A DNA stretch of 64,000 nucleotides, taken from the NCBI RefSeq assembly GCF_013167455.1, contig NZ_CP038328.1. One strand, written 5' to 3'. This DNA is from Escherichia coli O157:H7. Lineage in GTDB: Bacteria; Pseudomonadota; Gammaproteobacteria; Enterobacterales; Enterobacteriaceae. Positions 2,801 to 13,449 of the stretch are shown piece by piece. Every line of letters starts with the position of its first letter. Within the stretch, counting starts at the first letter, position 1. The translations under genes and the position numbers were made by a program. The notes under the pieces were generated by a model. The model was not told the DNA's origin. It made no database searches and saw only the letters and a list, made by a program, of their open reading frames with translations.

Positions 2801-4770
2801 CACAACTCGCCATTGGCAAACCCGCTCCCCTCGGCGCGCATTACGACGGTCAGGGCGTCAACTTCACACTTTTCTCCGCTCATGCCGAGCGGGTAGAACT
2901 GTGTGTCTTTGACGCCAATGGCCAGGAACATCGCTATGACTTGCCAGGGCACAGTGGCGACATTTGGCACGGTTATCTGCCGGATGCGCGCCCGGGTTTG
3001 CGTTATGGTTATCGCGTTCATGGCCCCTGGCAACCCGCCGAGGGGCATCGCTTTAACCCGGCGAAGTTGTTGATTGATCCTTGCGCGCGGCAAATTGACG
3101 GGGAGTTTAAAGATAACCCGCTGCTGCACGCCGGTCATAATGAACCTGACTATCGCGACAACGCCGCCATTGCGCCGAAATGCGTAGTGGTGGTTGATCA
3201 CTATGACTGGGAAGATGATGCCCCGCCGCGCACGCCGTGGGGCAGCACCATCATTTATGAAGCCCATGTTAAAGGATTAACGTACCTGCACCCGGAGATC
3301 CCGGTCGAGATCCGTGGCACTTATAAAGCCCTCGGGCATCCGGTGATGATCAACTATTTGAAACAATTGGGCATTACCGCGCTGGAACTGCTGCCAGTGG
3401 CGCAGTTTGCCAGTGAACCACGTCTGCAACGCATGGGGCTAAGTAACTACTGGGGTTACAACCCGGTGGCGATGTTTGCGCTGCATCCGGCGTATGCCTG
3501 CTCGCCAGAAACGGCGCTGCATGAGTTTCGCGATGCAATCAAAGCACTGCATAAAGCGGGTATCGAAGTCATTCTTGATATCGTGCTCAACCATAGTGCG
3601 GAACTGGACCTCGACGGCCCGTTATTCTCGCTGCGTGGGATCGACAACCGTAGCTATTATTGGATAAGAGAAGACGGCGATTATCACAACTGGACCGGTT
3701 GTGGCAACACGCTCAATTTGAGTCACCCGGCGGTGGTGGATTATGCCAGCGCCTGCCTGCGTTATTGGGTAGAAACCTGCCACGTCGATGGTTTCCGCTT
3801 TGATCTGGCGGCAGTCATGGGCCGTACGCCAGAGTTCCGTCAGGATGCGCCGTTGTTTACCGCTATCCAGAACTGCCCGGTGCTCTCGCAGGTGAAGTTA
3901 ATTGCTGAACCGTGGGATATCGCTCCTGGTGGTTATCAGGTGGGAAATTTCCCGCCGCTGTTTGCCGAGTGGAACGATCATTTCCGCGATGCTGCCCGTC
4001 GTTTCTGGCTACATTATGATTTGCCTCTGGGGGCGTTTGCCGGGCGTTTTGCTGCCTCCAGCGATGTTTTTAAACGTAATGGTCGTCTGCCGAGTGCCGC
4101 GATTAATCTCGTCACCGCGCATGACGGTTTTACGCTTCGCGACTGCGTTTGTTTCAACCATAAACACAATGAAGCAAACGGAGAAGAAAATCGCGACGGG
4201 ACCAACAACAATTACAGTAACAATCATGGTAAAGAAGGGGTAGGCGGTACCCTTGACCTGGTTGAACGGCGGCGCGACAGCATTCACGCCCTGTTAACAA
4301 CGTTGTTGCTCTCCCAGGGTACGCCGATGTTACTGGCCGGTGACGAACATGGTCACAGCCAGCATGGCAATAACAATGCCTACTGTCAGGATAACCAATT
4401 AACCTGGTTGGACTGGTCGCAGGCAAGCAGTGGTTTAACCGCATTTACCGCCGCGTTAATCCATCTGCGCAAGCGTATTCCCGCTTTGGTGGAGAATCGC
4501 TGGTGGGAAGAAGGCGACGGCAATGTCCGTTGGCTAAATCGATATGCTCAACCTTTAAGCACGGATGAGTGGCAAAACGGGCCGAAACAGCTGCAAATTC
4601 TGCTCTCGGATCGCTTTTTGATCGCAATTAACGCCACGCTTGAGGTAACAGAGATTGTTTTACCTGCTGGGGAGTGGCACGCCATTCCCCCATTCGCTGG
4701 AGAGGATAACCCAGTGATTACGGCTGTCTGGCAGGGACCTGCACACGGATTGTGTGTGTTCCAGAGATGA
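2797..4770 (+). CDS. glgX: glycogen debranching enzyme
   Basis: 657-aa [26 protein letters not shown]...; ATGA start/stop overlap with glgB. Confidence 0.97.
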
Positions 4771-4787: not shown

Positions 4788-6083
4788 ATGGTTAGTTTAG
4801 AGAAGAACGATCACTTAATGTTGGCGCGCCAGCTGCCATTGAAATCTGTTGCCCTGATACTGGCGGGAGGACGTGGTACCCGCCTGAAGGATTTAACCAA
4901 TAAGCGAGCAAAACCGGCCGTACACTTCGGCGGTAAGTTCCGCATTATCGACTTTGCGCTGTCTAACTGCATCAACTCCGGGATCCGTCGTATGGGCGTG
5001 ATCACCCAGTACCAGTCCCACACTCTGGTGCAGCACATTCAGCGCGGCTGGTCATTCTTCAATGAAGAAATGAACGAGTTTGTCGATCTGCTGCCAGCAC
5101 AGCAGAGAATGAAAGGGGAAAACTGGTATCGCGGCACCGCAGATGCGGTCACCCAAAACCTCGATATTATTCGCCGTTATAAAGCGGAATACGTGGTGAT
5201 CCTGGCGGGCGACCATATCTACAAGCAAGACTACTCGCGTATGCTTATCGATCACGTCGAAAAAGGCGCACGTTGCACCGTTGCTTGTATGCCAGTACCG
5301 ATTGAAGAAGCCTCCGCATTTGGCGTTATGGCGGTTGATGAGAACGATAAAATTATCGAATTCGTTGAAAAACCTGCTAACCCGCCGTCAATGCCGAACG
5401 ATCCGAGCAAATCTCTGGCGAGTATGGGTATCTACGTCTTTGACGCCGACTATCTGTATGAACTGCTGGAAGAAGACGATCGCGATGAGAACTCCAGCCA
5501 CGACTTTGGCAAAGATTTGATTCCCAAGATCACCGAAGCCGGTCTGGCCTATGCGCACCCGTTCCCGCTCTCTTGCGTACAATCCGATCCGGATGCCGAG
5601 CCGTACTGGCGCGATGTGGGTACGCTGGAAGCTTACTGGAAAGCGAACCTCGATCTGGCCTCTGTGGTGCCGGAACTGGATATGTACGATCGCAATTGGC
5701 CAATTCGCACCTACAATGAATCATTACCGCCAGCGAAATTCGTGCAGGATCGCTCCGGTAGCCACGGGATGACCCTTAACTCACTGGTTTCCGGCGGTTG
5801 TGTGATCTCCGGTTCGGTGGTGGTGCAGTCCGTTCTGTTCTCGCGCGTTCGCGTGAATTCATTCTGCAACATTGATTCCGCCGTATTGTTACCGGAAGTA
5901 TGGGTAGGTCGCTCGTGCCGTCTGCGCCGCTGCGTCATCGATCGTGCTTGTGTTATTCCGGAAGGCATGGTGATTGGTGAAAACGCAGAGGAAGATGCAC
6001 GTCGTTTCTATCGTTCAGAAGAAGGCATCGTGCTGGTAACGCGCGAAATGCTACGGAAGTTAGGGCATAAACAGGAGCGATAA
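4788..6083 (+). CDS. glgC: glucose-1-phosphate adenylyltransferase (ADP-glucose pyrophosphorylase)
   Basis: ORF track starts at 4752, but [20 protein letters not shown]... with AAGGAG SD corresponds to the 431-aa protein; start placed at ATG 4788. Confidence 0.95.
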
Positions 6084-7516
6084 TGCAGGTTTTACATGTA
6101 TGTTCAGAGATGTTCCCGCTGCTTAAAACCGGCGGTCTGGCTGATGTTATTGGGGCATTACCCGCAGCACAAATCGCAGACGGCGTTGACGCTCGCGTAC
6201 TGTTGCCTGCATTTCCCGATATTCGCCGTGGCGTGACCGATGCGCAGGTAGTATCCCGTCGTGATACCTTCGCCGGGCATATCACGCTGTTGTTCGGTCA
6301 TTACAACGGGGTTGGCATATACCTGATTGACGCGCCGCATCTCTATGATCGTCCGGGAAGCCCGTATCACGATACCAACTTATTTGCCTATACCGACAAC
6401 GTATTGCGTTTTGCGCTGCTGGGGTGGGTTGGGGCAGAAATGGCCAGCGGGCTTGACCCATTCTGGCGTCCTGATGTGGTGCATGCGCACGACTGGCATG
6501 CAGGCCTTGCGCCTGCGTATCTGGCGGCGCGCGGGCGTCCGGCGAAGTCGGTGTTTACTGTGCACAACCTGGCCTATCAAGGCATGTTTTATGCACATCA
6601 CATGAATGACATCCAATTGCCATGGTCATTCTTTAATATTCATGGGCTGGAATTCAACGGACAAATCTCTTTCCTGAAGGCCGGTCTGTACTATGCCGAT
6701 CACATTACGGCGGTCAGTCCAACCTACGCTCGCGAGATCACCGAACCGCAGTTTGCCTACGGTATGGAAGGTTTGTTGCAACAGCGTCATCGTGAAGGGC
6801 GTCTTTCCGGCGTACTGAACGGCGTGGACGAGAAAATCTGGAGTCCAGAGACGGACTTACTATTGGCCTCGCGTTACACCCGCGATACGTTGGAAGATAA
6901 AGCGGAAAATAAGCGCCAGTTACAAATCGCAATGGGGCTTAAGGTTGACGATAAAGTGCCGCTTTTTGCAGTGGTGAGCCGTCTGACCAGCCAGAAAGGC
7001 CTCGACCTGGTGCTGGAGGCCTTACCGGGTCTTCTGGAGCAGGGCGGGCAGCTGGCGCTACTCGGCGCGGGCGATCCGGTGCTGCAGGAAGGTTTCCTTG
7101 CGGCGGCAGCGGAATACCCCGGCCAGGTGGGCGTTCAGATTGGCTATCACGAAGCATTTTCGCATCGCATTATGGGCGGTGCGGACGTCATTCTGGTGCC
7201 CAGCCGTTTTGAACCGTGCGGCTTAACGCAACTTTATGGATTGAAGTACGGTACGCTGCCGTTAGTGCGGCGCACCGGTGGGCTTGCTGATACGGTTTCT
7301 GACTGTTCTCTTGAGAACCTTGCAGATGGCGTCGCCAGTGGGTTTGTCTTTGAAGATAGTAATGCCTGGTCGCTGTTACGGGCTATTCGACGTGCTTTTG
7401 TACTGTGGTCCCGTCCTTCTCTGTGGCGGTTTGTGCAACGTCAGGCTATGGCAATGGATTTTAGCTGGCAGGTCGCGGCGAAGTCGTACCGTGAGCTTTA
7501 CTATCGCTTGAAATAG
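6083..7516 (+). CDS. glgA: glycogen synthase
   Basis: 477-aa [25 protein letters not shown]...; 1-nt overlap with the glgC stop (TAATG). Confidence 0.97.
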
Positions 7517-9998: not shown

Positions 9999-10026
9999 AA
10001 CGGGGCCACAAGGTCCCGTTTTTTTC
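9999..10026 (+). terminator. rho-independent terminator of glgCAP
   Basis: 9-bp stem (aacggggcc / ggtcccgtt, one G-U pair), loop acaa, followed by a run of 7 T. Confidence 0.8.
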
Positions 10027-10097: not shown

Positions 10098-11615
10098 ATG
10101 GACAGAATGATGCCAAATAGAAAATGGATTTTGACCTCGCTGATAATGACTTTTTTCGGCATCCCCATACTGGCGCAATTTTTGGCAGCGGTTGTTGCCA
10201 TGCTGGGTGTCGGGCTTACCGGTATTATTGAAGTTTGTAATATCCTTATCACGCCAACAATTTATCTTCTACTCAACGTCTTTATGCTGACGCTGGGGGC
10301 GATAATAATATTTTTCTCTGGTCGCGTGTGGGCCGGTGATAGCGCGCCAGAAAACAGAGAAATAGCCGTCTGGCGGCAATGCTTTTTTCTCTTACCCGCG
10401 CTATTAACCCTGGTTGGCTGGATAATCACGCTACATCTGGCAGATTATCAATTTCGCCAGATGGGAGCTGGTTGGTTGGCAAACCTTATGCTTCCCTGGT
10501 TGGGCGTTTTTTTAGTCTCATTAGTGGGTGGTGAGTACTGGTGGATGGTCATTATTCCCGTTGGGGCGCATATCAGTTTTTCGCTGGGATACGCCTGGCC
10601 GACCAGATATCCTTTATCCGGCACGTCCGGACTACGTTGCCGTAACTTACTCCTGTTTCTACTTCTCTTACTTGGTATTGTCGCCGGGTATCAGGCCCAT
10701 TTATATAAGCAGCAAAATCCTGGTGTCGGTGTACGCGAAAATATTGATATCAGGGCCTGGCGACCCGATAAACTCAATAATCGACTGACGCCGCTGCGTG
10801 GCAAACCGCAAATTCAGTTTAGGCAAAACTGGCCGCGAATCGATGGCGCCACGGCTGCGTACCCAATTTATGCTTCTGCATTTTATGCATTAAGTGTAAT
10901 ACCAGAGGATTTTCACGTTTGGGAATATCTGGAGAACTCTCGTACCCCCGATGCATATAACCGGATTGTTAAAGGTGATGCCGATATTATTTTTGTGGCG
11001 CAACCCTCCGGCGGGCAGAAAAAACGCGCTGAGGAATCGGGCGTCACTTTGCTATACACGCCATTTGCCCGTGAAGCATTTGTTTTCATCGTCAATGCGG
11101 ATAATCCGGTTAATTCCCTGACTGAACAACAGGTGCGTGACATTTTCAGTGGTGCAATTACCAATTGGCGTACTGTTGGCGGTAACGATCAGGAGATCCA
11201 GACCTGGCAGCGCCCGGAAGACTCTGGCAGCCAGACAGTGATGCAATCACAGGTCATGAAAAAAGTCCGCATGATCTCGCCGCAGGAAACGGAAGTGGCA
11301 AGCGTGATGGAGGGAATGATTAAAGTCGTTGCCGAATACCGTAATACAAACAACGCAATAGGCTATACCTTCCGCTATTACGCGACGCAAATGAATGCTG
11401 ATAAAAATATAAGATTGCTAGCGATTAACGGTATTACACCGACGGCGGAAAACATTCGCAACGGCAAATATGCGTACATCGTCGATGCATTTATGGTGAC
11501 GAGAGAAAATACAACGTCAGAAACACAAAAACTGGTCGAATGGTTTTTAACGCCGCAGGGGCAGAGTCTGGTAGAAGATGTGGGATATGTGCCGCTGTAT
11601 CTAACAATGGAATAA
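10098..11615 (+). CDS. uncharacterised fusion protein: N-terminal polytopic membrane domain (about 6 predicted TM helices, residues 1-210) plus C-terminal PstS-like periplasmic phosphate/anion-binding domain
   Basis: 505-aa ORF; N-terminal half is strongly hydrophobic. C-terminal half carries PstS-family signatures as I recall them: GATAAYPIYASAF, QRPEDSGSQ (compare RADGSGTS in PstS), IGYTFRYYA, ITPTAENIRNG. Start may be M1 or M4/M5; AGGAAG SD precedes 10098. Confidence 0.8.
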   Translation: MDRMMPNRKWILTSLIMTFFGIPILAQFLAAVVAMLGVGLTGIIEVCNILITPTIYLLLNVFMLTLGAIIIFFSGRVWAGDSAPENREIAVWRQCFFLLPALLTLVGWIITLHLADYQFRQMGAGWLANLMLPWLGVFLVSLVGGEYWWMVIIPVGAHISFSLGYAWPTRYPLSGTSGLRCRNLLLFLLLLLGIVAGYQAHLYKQQNPGVGVRENIDIRAWRPDKLNNRLTPLRGKPQIQFRQNWPRIDGATAAYPIYASAFYALSVIPEDFHVWEYLENSRTPDAYNRIVKGDADIIFVAQPSGGQKKRAEESGVTLLYTPFAREAFVFIVNADNPVNSLTEQQVRDIFSGAITNWRTVGGNDQEIQTWQRPEDSGSQTVMQSQVMKKVRMISPQETEVASVMEGMIKVVAEYRNTNNAIGYTFRYYATQMNADKNIRLLAINGITPTAENIRNGKYAYIVDAFMVTRENTTSETQKLVEWFLTPQGQSLVEDVGYVPLYLTME

Positions 11616-11640
11616 CGCTCGAGAGAAAGGAATCAGCGAG

Positions 11641-12633
11641 ATGAATAAATTCACCGGTGTTTTACTATTAGGCACGGCGTTACTGGCGGGATGTGTCGAC
11701 CGGGAAGGGTACTATAACAGCGTCAGGGAAGAAGAGAGCCATGGACTGACGTCTCTGCGGGGGCAACCTGCATTACGTTACAGCGATGATTGGTCAAGAT
11801 GGCCGAGAGTGTACGGCGCTACAGCCTTATACCCGCTGTATGCCTCCGCGTATTATAAATTAGTACCCGAGCCAAAAGATAAGGATCGAACCTCGCTGGC
11901 CTGGCAGGCGTATGGTTTGCAGCAAACCCGAACAGCTGAAGCCTACGATAGTCTGATTAAAGGTTCCGCGACGGTTATTTTTGTTGCACAACCGTCGGAA
12001 GGACAGAAAAAACGTGCAGAAGAAGCGGGTGTTAAACTGAAATATACCGCTTTCGCCCGCGAAGCCTTTGTCTTTATCGTTGATATTAATAACCCGGTAA
12101 ATTCTCTCTCTGAGCACCAGGTTAAAGATATTTTTAGCGGCAAAACTAGCCGCTGGAATAAAGTAGGTGGTAGTGACGAACATATAAAAGTCTGGCAGCG
12201 CCCTGAAGATTCTGGAAGCCAAACGATTATGAAGGGGTTGGTTATGCAAGACACCCCAATGCTGCCAGCTAAAAAATCCACTGTGATTGATCTTATGGGC
12301 GGTTTAATTACTGAAGTTGCCGACTATCAAAACACGCCATCTTCCATTGGGTACACCTTCCACTATTACGTCACTCGTATGAATGACAATATGCTCAAAA
12401 TGCGCAAGCAGATTAAACTTTTGGCTATAAATGGCGTTGCGCCTACCGAGGAAAATATCCGCAACGGCACTTATCCATACATTGTGGATGCCTATATGGT
12501 GACGCGTGAAAATCCCACGCCGGAAACGCAGAAATTTGTTGACTGGTTTATAAGTCAGCAGGGGCAACAGTTGGTAGAGGATGTGGGGTATGTGCCGCTG
12601 TATGAAGCATCCCCCGAATCATCAGGACAATAA
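11641..12633 (+). CDS. PstS-like phosphate/anion-binding lipoprotein (paralog of the C-terminal domain of the upstream gene)
   Basis: 330-aa ORF; signal peptide with lipobox LLAGC; roughly 60-70% identity by eye to residues 230-505 of ORF 10098-11615, sharing the FVAQPS.GQKKRAEE, AREAFVFIV, WQRPEDSGSQT and VEDVGYVPLY blocks. Confidence 0.85.
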   Translation: MNKFTGVLLLGTALLAGCVDREGYYNSVREEESHGLTSLRGQPALRYSDDWSRWPRVYGATALYPLYASAYYKLVPEPKDKDRTSLAWQAYGLQQTRTAEAYDSLIKGSATVIFVAQPSEGQKKRAEEAGVKLKYTAFAREAFVFIVDINNPVNSLSEHQVKDIFSGKTSRWNKVGGSDEHIKVWQRPEDSGSQTIMKGLVMQDTPMLPAKKSTVIDLMGGLITEVADYQNTPSSIGYTFHYYVTRMNDNMLKMRKQIKLLAINGVAPTEENIRNGTYPYIVDAYMVTRENPTPETQKFVDWFISQQGQQLVEDVGYVPLYEASPESSGQ

Positions 12634-13235
12634 TGATGAATATAATCAGACTTTATATTTATCCGTTATTTCTCGGCTTTGTTATTGTACCGTTGTTGGT
12701 GTGGCCGACGGTGGTTGCGCTGGCTGCCTGTGTAATCACGCTGAGTTTTCTGGGAGAAATACTGTTCTCAATCCCGCTCATGCACAGGCGTATTTCCCTT
12801 CTGCAATTACAACTATGGTTATCGGCTGAATATGCGCTTTTCTTCTGTGCAATGGTGGGCGTTGGTTGGCAATTTGCGCGCAGAACGCCACCTGAATTGA
12901 AAAGCAGACTGCATTGTTGGCTGGTATTTGCACCAGTTTATTTCTGGTTGCTCCTGTGGAATATCATTTTTTATGTCGCGCCAGCGCAAATTGCTTTGCT
13001 GGAAAATATGCGCAGTTTCTTTCTGACAGTTGTCTGGCTCCCACTGAATTTTTCGCCATTTTGGTCTCAACAGTGGATCGACTTTGTCGGTCCGATAAGT
13101 GCACAGCTTGGTTTTGCGTTGGGATATTATTGCCAGTGGCGTAGCAAAAATAGAAGCCAGATACGGAAGTGGAGTGAGTGGGGAACGTGCTTAAGTTTTG
13201 TTACGTTGGGTATGATGGCGTGGGCTTTGCGGTAA
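12633..13235 (+). CDS. integral membrane protein (about 6 TM), paralog of the N-terminal membrane domain of ORF 10098-11615
   Basis: 200-aa hydrophobic ORF; its ATG overlaps the upstream stop (TAATG); shares LGFALGYYCQW versus ISFSLGYAWPT and a similar helix spacing with the ORF1 N-domain. Confidence 0.7.
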   Translation: MMNIIRLYIYPLFLGFVIVPLLVWPTVVALAACVITLSFLGEILFSIPLMHRRISLLQLQLWLSAEYALFFCAMVGVGWQFARRTPPELKSRLHCWLVFAPVYFWLLLWNIIFYVAPAQIALLENMRSFFLTVVWLPLNFSPFWSQQWIDFVGPISAQLGFALGYYCQWRSKNRSQIRKWSEWGTCLSFVTLGMMAWALR

Positions 13236-13288: not shown

Positions 13289-13387
13289 GCCTGATGCGGC
13301 GTGAACGCCTTATCAGGCCTACAAAATCATGCAAATTCAACATATTGCATAAACCACGTAGGCCTGATAAGCGTAGCGCATCAGGCA
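13289..13387. repeat. BIME: two REP elements in inverted orientation
   Basis: gcctgatgcggcgtgaacgccttatcaggcctac (13289-13322) and gtaggcctgataagcgtagcgcatcaggca (13358-13387) match the enterobacterial REP consensus. Confidence 0.85.
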
Positions 13388-13449
13388 ATTTTGTGTTTGT
13401 CATCAGTCTCAGGCCAGATTGAAATCTGACCTGATCACCTTACGTTAAT

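Follow-up and report, generated by a model that had tools for sequence, protein, structure and literature searches.

A three-gene island between glgP and glpD

We analyzed a window of 64,000 nucleotides from Escherichia coli O157:H7 (assembly GCF_013167455.1, contig NZ_CP038328.1), in which O-island 133 is located between glgP and glpD, with a focus on the second of three consecutive open reading frames (ORFs) on the plus strand. ORF1, here called the long form, is located at 10098..11615 and encodes a protein of 505 amino acids from the first ATG, or 502 amino acids from the RefSeq start at 10107, in which an N-terminal multi-helix membrane domain (approximately residues 1–205) is followed by a PstS-like domain of the PBP_like_2 type (approximately residues 225–501). 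ORF2, the short form, is located at 11641..12633, with the ATG at 11641 and the TAA at 12631–12633, and encodes a predicted lipoprotein of 330 amino acids with a PstS-like binding domain; RefSeq also annotates this coding sequence in identical O157:H7 genomes. The spacer of 25 nucleotides between these two genes (11616..11640, plus strand) contains a Shine-Dalgarno-like AAGGA 9 nucleotides 5' of the ORF2 ATG. ORF3 (12633..13235) encodes a membrane protein of 200 amino acids, and its ATG shares its A with the TAA of ORF2 (TAATG). The N-terminal multi-helix membrane domain is absent from ORF2, which has a counterpart of the last helix only, in the form of its signal peptide, and the membrane domain for ORF2 is encoded as a separate gene, ORF3. 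The island contains a two-module unit once as a fusion (ORF1) and once as a split pair (ORF2 and ORF3).

In a BLASTP comparison, residues 224–501 of ORF1 aligned with residues 30–321 of ORF2, with 166 identical residues over 292 columns (57% identity, 74% positives, E 9e-117). This is far above chance and well over an identity of 30%, which had been set as the lower limit for genuine similarity by the sequence-only reading, and agrees with its claim that ORF2 repeats the binding domain of ORF1 at high protein identity. Many synonymous differences had also been noticed, and a codon alignment of 272 codons confirms this, with 61% amino-acid and 64% nucleotide identity, identities of 69, 81, and 41% at the first, second, and third codon positions, and the same codon at 79 of the 166 identical residues. 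The proportion of synonymous differences (pS) is 0.78, which is saturated, and the non-synonymous divergence (dN) is 0.29. Because its synonymous sites are saturated, the codon alignment identifies ORF1 and ORF2 as an old paralog pair, with a recent copy or an artefact ruled out.

The ratio of non-synonymous to synonymous divergence (dN/dS) could not be computed for the pair, since a pS of 0.78 exceeds the Jukes-Cantor limit, and comparisons of orthologs were used instead. For ORF2, dN/dS was 0.11 against an E. coli allele with 91% identity and 0.08 against the Pseudocitrobacter ortholog, and values across alleles and genera were 0.15–0.21 for ORF1 and 0.20–0.26 for ORF3. By these estimates, with dN/dS of about 0.1, ORF2 is under purifying selection, and the earlier proposal of an old gene maintained by selection is upheld.

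The sequence-only reading was correct about the repeated binding domain but incomplete, because ORF3 is homologous to the membrane domain of ORF1 and both modules are repeated. Alignments place the family-specific membrane domain of ORF1 at 10098..10763 on the plus strand (approximately residues 1–222), with the motifs G-x-P-x-L, G-x-x-W-A, R-x-x-L-x-L-x-P, and P-x-x-x-Q-x-x-F-x-L-G-Y, and with LLLFLLLLLGIVAGYQ as the last helix. A Pfam search with the N-terminal part of ORF1 returned no family. BLASTP of ORF3 against the ORF1 N-terminus returned a 12-residue match alone (E 0.037), covering P-x-x-A-x-x-x-F-x-L-G-Y at the same position in both proteins. With hhalign, the ORF3 family aligned to 78 long-form N-termini (ORF1 and 77 from the database) over 169 colinear columns, with a probability of 98.2% and E 3.6e-14, and a hidden Markov model (HMM) of the long-form N-termini recovered ORF3 over nearly its full length with hmmsearch (E 3.6e-11). 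To guard against composition artefacts, 17 reversed, column-shuffled or block-shuffled hhalign controls were run, for which the best E was 3e-4. In a joint alignment ORF3 keeps the membrane-domain motifs, and its C-terminus, MMAWALR*, falls on the end of the last long-form helix. These profile alignments identify ORF3 as a remote homolog of the ORF1 membrane domain that ends just past the last helix.

The AlphaFold2 (AF2) model of ORF3 has a predicted local distance difference test score (pLDDT) of 82.6, and its Foldseek matches in AFDB50 were the N-termini of the long-form family only, sequences that were part of the modeling alignment. A fold match in PDB was not found for the membrane domain. 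A search of 1.84 billion cluster representatives with the membrane-domain profile gave only 168 matches, and all 49 matches of 440–560 amino acids also contained the periplasmic binding-protein (PBP) domain; by this profile search, the membrane domain is therefore specific to the long-form family.

Fold, predicted binding pocket, and predicted lipid anchor of ORF2

ORF2 matches the Pfam family PBP_like_2 (PF12849) with E 8e-30, as does ORF1 over residues 247–485 (E 1.2e-28). Its sequence matches in PDB are PstS proteins of Clostridium, Borrelia, Synechocystis, and Streptococcus (E 4e-16), and the ORF2 family profile matches PstS proteins in PDB with E 1.8e-25. The AF2 model of ORF2, built from 50 homologs, has a pLDDT of 88.4 and a predicted template modeling score (pTM) of 0.83, with the first 30 residues or so poorly defined (mean pLDDT 50–67 for residues 1–30; the BLAST similarity to ORF1 begins at residue 30). 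The top 39 Foldseek matches to this model in PDB were phosphate-binding or DING-type proteins, with a best E of 3e-17 to 1e-15 and identities of 18–21%. A class II periplasmic binding-protein fold of the PBP_like_2 type was found for ORF2 by Pfam, AF2, and Foldseek. ORF2 falls below the curated cutoffs of TIGR02136 (119.1 bits versus 206.6, with the match limited to profile positions 79–295) and TIGR00975 (15.8 bits versus 205), and ORF1 is likewise below the TIGR02136 cutoff (122 bits versus 206.6).

The pocket was mapped by alignment only, from the alignment of 50 family members, an HMM alignment to PBP-1 of Clostridium perfringens (4Q8R) and published contacts. The predicted anion-binding stretch is located at 11815..12219 on the plus strand and includes G59-A60-T61-A62, T98, A116-Q-P-S119, and R187-P-E-D-S191-G192-S193. 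The family signature GATAxYPxYASA, FVAQPS, REAFVF, WQRPEDSGSQ, and GYTFRYY is present throughout in ORF2 and is invariant or at least 90% conserved among the 50 members. Phosphate is contacted in PBP-1 by Ser11, Thr12, Ser13, Ser41, Ser59, Arg125, Ser129, Gly130, and Thr131 (PMC5381212). In the alignment, T12 corresponds to T61 of ORF2, S41 to T98, R125 to R187, S129 to S191, G130 to G192, and T131 to S193, such that an equivalent side chain or Gly is kept at six of the nine contact residues, again with complete or at least 90% conservation across the family. The positions of S11 and S13 are Ala in the ORF2 family; in PBPs of high selectivity, the two sites are reported to be occupied by Ala and Leu (PMC5381212). 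The position of the selectivity Asp, which is Asp56 in E. coli PstS and Ser59 in PBP-1, aligns with the conserved Ala116 of ORF2. In E. coli PstS, Asp56 forms a low-barrier hydrogen bond that underlies the selectivity for phosphate (PMC5381212). In the alignment, the family site looks like an intact oxyanion site minus the proton-accepting residue, and since the oxyanion site is kept but the proton acceptor is replaced by Ala116, it would accommodate a phosphate-like ligand that is not necessarily free phosphate.

The signal peptide of ORF2, MNKFTGVLLLGTALLAG followed by Cys, is located at 11641..11694 on the plus strand, with the codon for Cys18 (TGT) at 11692–11694. It consists of a basic n-region (MNK), a hydrophobic h-region (FTGVLLLGTAL), and a lipobox of the type [LVI][ASTVI][GAS]C (LLAG then C18), with Val at position +2 and Asp at position +3. 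A signal peptidase II-type lipobox, as noticed in the sequence-only reading, is thereby present according to a PROSITE-type lipoprotein rule, which also recognized 18 of 21 short-form homologs. A tether of approximately 16 residues is predicted between the lipidated Cys and the folded domain (11695..11742, plus strand), modeled with low confidence and with approximate boundaries. In E. coli, the residue after the lipidated Cys governs Lol sorting (the +2 rule), and because this residue is Val in ORF2, Lol-dependent sorting to the outer membrane is predicted. The 18 lipobox-containing short forms all lack Asp at position +2.

When aligned, the signal peptide of ORF2 and the last long-form membrane helix occupy equivalent positions (LLLLLGIVAGYQ versus VLLLGTALLAGC). 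Four long forms (P0048, P0099, P0109, and P0112) have a Cys in a lipobox-like context (LVAC/WQ, LTAC/QG, VVGC/QG) at the end of the last membrane helix, which is the exact place of the lipidated Cys of the short forms. From these alignments, processing at the lipobox-like Cys could be considered for some long forms.

Distribution and origin of the fused and split forms

We counted the three genes in 5,426 complete E. coli genomes, with presence of ORF1 defined by a coverage of at least 80%; all were located on chromosomes. ORF1 was present in 3,342, ORF3 in 2,053, and an intact ORF2 in 884 of these genomes, and the whole block of ORF1, ORF2, and ORF3 was recovered in 882 of the 884 genomes with ORF2. 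Some E. coli carry the split pair, among them O157:H7, B, and HS. The K-12-type pseudogene yzgL (L002 1401–2248) is a deletion scar, in which window position 10331 in ORF1 is joined to position 13176 in ORF3 with an 8-nucleotide overlap; it consists of approximately the first 75 codons of ORF1 and the last 20 codons of ORF3, with about 2.8 kb lost, including all of ORF2. Two deeply divergent allele classes of the island occur in E. coli, as seen from the comparison of window positions 10107–13235 to FUJ80154 (L015), with approximately 91% nucleotide identity and a dS of 0.24–0.33. In the flanks, the 3' end of glgP is 97.8% identical, and since the 3' end of glpD has also diverged (93.6%), the divergent block reaches into glpD. 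The family evolves fast, with a dN of 0.35 as compared to 0.06 for glgP between E. coli and the Klebsiella oxytoca-type locus, and the long-form architecture is kept across Enterobacterales down to approximately 45% identity.

Long forms were found as single genes in Klebsiella and Salmonella, where they are located between glgP and glpD, in Rahnella, between purB and phoPQ, and in Leminorella. No pstC, pstA, or pstB-like gene, or other gene for an ATP-binding cassette (ABC) system, was found beside ORF1–3 or their homologs in the E. coli, Klebsiella, Salmonella, Rahnella, Leminorella, and Pseudocitrobacter loci. In Pseudocitrobacter, a gene for a lipoprotein of 334 amino acids overlaps a gene for a protein of 351 amino acids, in which the membrane domain precedes a PBP domain that has lost a large internal part; judged by its domain content, the Pseudocitrobacter pair is an intermediate arrangement between the fused and split forms.

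A neighbor-joining (NJ) tree groups ORF2 with the other lipoprotein short forms of Escherichia, Salmonella, and Pseudocitrobacter (bootstrap support 62/100). A sister relationship of ORF2 to the ORF1 clade, seen in a first NJ tree, was dropped (bootstrap 7/100). In the family alignment, ORF2 is 56% identical to ORF1 and 57–60% identical to long forms of other lineages. ORF2 belongs, by this phylogeny, to an old lipoprotein clade, and a duplication in situ from ORF1 is not demonstrated, because ORF2 is no closer to ORF1 than to the long forms of other lineages. Of the ancient tandem duplication proposed in the sequence-only reading, the ancient part is retained and the tandem origin from the neighboring gene is left without support.

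ORF1 is the ancestral resident of the glgP–glpD locus in Enterobacteriaceae. Because the signal peptide aligns with the last helix and an intermediate is found in Pseudocitrobacter, these observations suggest that long forms once stood in an array, where the first helices were lost from one copy and the binding domain from the next. The lipoprotein form would then be derived from a long form by loss of all membrane helices but the last, which would have become the signal peptide, with its terminal aromatic residue (Tyr or Trp) replaced by the lipidated Cys, and ORF3 would be a diverged long form reduced to its membrane domain.

Several variant loci were observed in other genomes. In many E. 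coli, among them KP63 and NU14 (L005 4219–4986 and L004 4277–5044), the gene 5' of the ORF3-type gene does not encode the lipoprotein but a protein of 255 amino acids that lacks a signal peptide. Homology to the O157 island resumes approximately 45 nucleotides before ORF3 at these loci, which is why the genes upstream of ORF3 both end in ...SSES[SP]G[QHK]. The variant locus of NU14 also contains a gene for a protein of 236 amino acids and a fimbrial operon; Pfam searches returned no family for the 255- and 236-residue proteins of the variant E. coli loci. E. coli TA054 (L011 3475–6981) has one long form and two short forms in tandem, one of which has IISGG, with Gly in place of the lipobox Cys. 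In Salmonella enterica (L006/L007 1200–12200), two lipoprotein PBP paralogs (3234–4241 and 5986–6993) are located in a region with Rhs-core tips (YYNRHRYYNP...DPLGL), N-terminal PAAR fragments (MSGKPAARQNDMT...), an Ntox34 fragment, a HEAT_2 protein, and small lipoproteins, which, from its gene content, looks like an orphan toxin/immunity array.

Genes for small secreted proteins were seen beside a long-form or lipoprotein gene at Klebsiella oxytoca-type, Salmonella, Pseudocitrobacter, and E. coli TA054 loci (L008 8539–8958, L016 8564–9109, L010 8231–8659, L011 2988–3413 and 8636–9064), with none in the O157 island. The Klebsiella-type and Salmonella proteins (139 and 181 amino acids) match Pfam YbbD_head. 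The TA054 proteins (141 and 142 amino acids) have signal peptides and Y-x-D-x-x-G-N repeats, with no Pfam match on record, and the Pseudocitrobacter protein of 142 amino acids was grouped with the others by size and position only.

Around the three genes of the window, a hairpin, ACGGGGCC-ACAA-GGTCCCGT followed by a run of T, is located at 10000–10026, just 3' of the glgP stop codon. By its sequence, it resembles an intrinsic terminator, which would split ORF1–3 from the glg operon. The hairpin is missing from the output of the consensus terminator scan, which also returned no terminator-like site in the spacer between ORF1 and ORF2; the numbers of sites in the promoter and terminator scans were no higher than in shuffled sequence, and these scans were not used. 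Palindromic repeats at 13290..13400, between ORF3 and the convergent glpD and outside the system, resemble the repetitive extragenic palindromic (REP) elements of E. coli and probably account for the 128,785 megablast places of the initial genome search.

Proposed role and comparison with known systems

We propose, with a probability of roughly 0.55, that ORF2 is an envelope-anchored oxyanion-binding module that works with the family membrane module and not with an ABC importer. ORF2 would be a lipoprotein facing the periplasm. Its class II PstS-type domain, with a tetrahedral oxyanion or a phosphoryl group as ligand, would close on this ligand and act on or with the membrane module in sensing, retention or ABC-independent transfer. 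ORF1 in the inner membrane and ORF2 in the outer membrane would sample the periplasm from opposite membranes. The RefSeq label of ORF2 as a phosphate ABC transporter substrate-binding protein probably mis-states its function.

Several points weigh against this proposal. From the observed homology, fold, lipobox, purifying selection, gene linkage, and lack of linked ABC partners, we infer the ligand and its class, the localization and the partner of ORF2, including any interaction with ORF3, and direct contact between a predicted outer-membrane ORF2 and an inner-membrane ORF3 is not obvious. With Ala116 in the place of the Asp, the ligand may be other than free phosphate. The model leaves the membrane module at either six or seven helices, and the Foldseek match of modeled ORF3 to the long-form N-termini is not independent evidence of homology. 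ORF3-type genes also occur without ORF2, adjoining the unrelated 255-residue protein, which has no signal peptide, and since the Salmonella lipoprotein paralogs occur without an ORF3-like gene, the split pair is not obligatory.

It could instead be argued that ORF2 is an accessory phosphate-binding protein that feeds a canonical PstCA encoded elsewhere, like the multiple PstS paralogs of other bacteria. The RefSeq name, [quoted passage not shown] the PstS fold, and the conservation of most phosphate-contacting positions are in line with such a role, as is the finding that almost all of the 13 solved PBP_like_2 proteins bind phosphate (PMC10443332). We nevertheless consider it unlikely, given the scores far below both TIGR cutoffs, the Ala at the selectivity Asp/Ser position, the lack of linked pstC, pstA, and pstB in all loci examined, and the fusion of the domain elsewhere to a membrane domain distinct from ABC permeases, with no Pfam or PDB fold match; a Pho box was not seen upstream of ORF1 by visual inspection of the sequence. 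That ORF1–3 are decaying, functionless remnants of a former transporter locus is improbable, as all three genes are intact, with dN/dS of 0.08–0.26 across alleles and genera, the pocket residues are invariant, ORF3 keeps the membrane motifs, and the long-form architecture is conserved in Enterobacterales.

Tandem expansion and variable neighbors would reflect an arms race if the lipoprotein short forms were periplasmic immunity or protection proteins in inter-bacterial competition, and the three tandem PBP genes in E. coli TA054, the fast evolution of the family, and the two Salmonella short forms amid Rhs, PAAR, and Ntox34 fragments, a HEAT-repeat protein, and small lipoproteins fit with this scenario. 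However, the association with a toxin array is confined to one lineage, linked toxin genes are missing from E. coli O157, Pseudocitrobacter, and every long-form locus, PADLOC gave no matches, and the invariant pocket fits a small-ligand site rather than a toxin-binding surface, making such a role very improbable. A role in anti-phage defense was also considered and rejected, with no PADLOC match for ORF1, ORF2, or ORF3. The notion of a recent duplicate, an assembly artefact or a collapsed repeat has the adjacency of two similar genes in its favor and nothing more, and is refuted by the nucleotide identity of 64%, the third-position identity of 41%, and the 882 genomes that share the arrangement; the assertion that ORF2 is not an assembly artefact holds in that the arrangement is 100% identical in independent complete genomes.

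ORF2 was already annotated and its paralogy to ORF1 is itself ordinary; what this analysis adds is the fused and split architecture, the transition from helix to signal peptide, the probable misannotation, and an uncharacterized family with a novel membrane fold. In textbooks, PstS-type proteins belong to ABC importers. In this family, a PstS fold is kept across Enterobacterales under purifying selection with no linked ABC partner and is tied to a membrane domain, which offers a natural experiment on module fusion and fission, in which the signal peptide of a lipoprotein would have arisen from a membrane helix. Going beyond the envelope-anchored module proposed above, we tentatively consider the possibility, with doubts prevailing, that ORF1 and the pair of ORF2 and ORF3 represent an undescribed ABC-independent envelope system, composed of a PstS-type module and a novel module of six to seven helices, which would be a new binding-protein-dependent sensor or secondary carrier for a ligand that is phosphorylated or oxyanionic. 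If true, the receptor would sit on the outer membrane in its lipoprotein version, and the reduced type III secretion reported for the O-island 133 deletion mutant in enterohemorrhagic E. coli (PMC3378721) might be due to this system. This deletion phenotype was not dissected further (PMC3378721; PMC10877973), and ORF1–3 provide three candidate genes for it. Our literature search on yzgL and the O157 locus tags returned array tables and the O-island 133 deletion screen only, with type III secretion as the sole phenotype. For now, the practical weight of these results is modest, and it would grow with a ligand or a phenotype.

Among known systems, GlnPQ and OpuA, in which substrate-binding domains are fused to the membrane domains of transporters, follow a similar logic, with a binding domain that is tethered to a membrane protein or docks on it, in fused and separate versions. 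Signaling by a substrate-binding protein to a membrane receptor is seen for PstS and CtpL in Pseudomonas aeruginosa (PMC8050422).

The results also bear on the "enigmatic" op1 genes of Salmonella Typhimurium, SL1344_3495 and SL1344_3494, located between glgP and glpD, which represent the same locus and very probably the long-form family, with the difference that a long form is there combined with a small YbbD_head protein. In Salmonella, the long form P0073 is flanked by an Fe-ADH gene and glpD, matching the description of op1 (PMC12445098), and from gene order alone we infer that P0073 is SL1344_3495. This counterpart was described as a periplasmic substrate-binding protein of unknown function with some PstS homology, in an operon under an IclR-type repressor, and the op1 genes were proposed by the authors to be transporter remnants (PMC12445098), a view that the conservation and selection found here speak against.

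E. coli PstS (1IXH, 2ABH, 1A54) shares the class II "venus flytrap" fold with ORF2 (Foldseek E of approximately 1e-11 to 1e-10). Both proteins have a G-A-T motif near the N-terminus and R-x-x-x-S-G-[ST]. They differ in that the identity is only about 16%, that PstS is soluble and ORF2 a predicted lipoprotein without linked pstCAB, that Asp56 of PstS has no acidic counterpart in ORF2 (Ala116), and that ORF2 is far under the TIGR00975 cutoff.

The best matches to ORF2 in both sequence and structure are C. perfringens PBP-1 (4Q8R/4GD5), Streptococcus pneumoniae PstS1 (4EXL/4LAT), Borrelia BB0215 (4N13), and Synechocystis Sll0540 (9L8J); a paper on Sll0540 was not found in the literature. BB0215 has been described as a lipoprotein (PMC5381212), as predicted for ORF2, and the earlier contrast of a lipid-anchored ORF2 with soluble PstS accordingly applies to E. 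coli PstS but not to PstS proteins in general. PBP-1 also lacks the Asp, having Ser59 in its place, and is less selective (PMC5381212); with Ala in the ORF2 family, one hydrogen bond is lost as compared to Ser59 and is not replaced. At 18–21% identity to ORF2, these Gram-positive and spirochete PBP_like_2 proteins have been described as parts of ABC-type phosphate transporters (PMC5381212), none of which was found for ORF2, while the usual partner of the ORF2 domain is the family-specific membrane domain.

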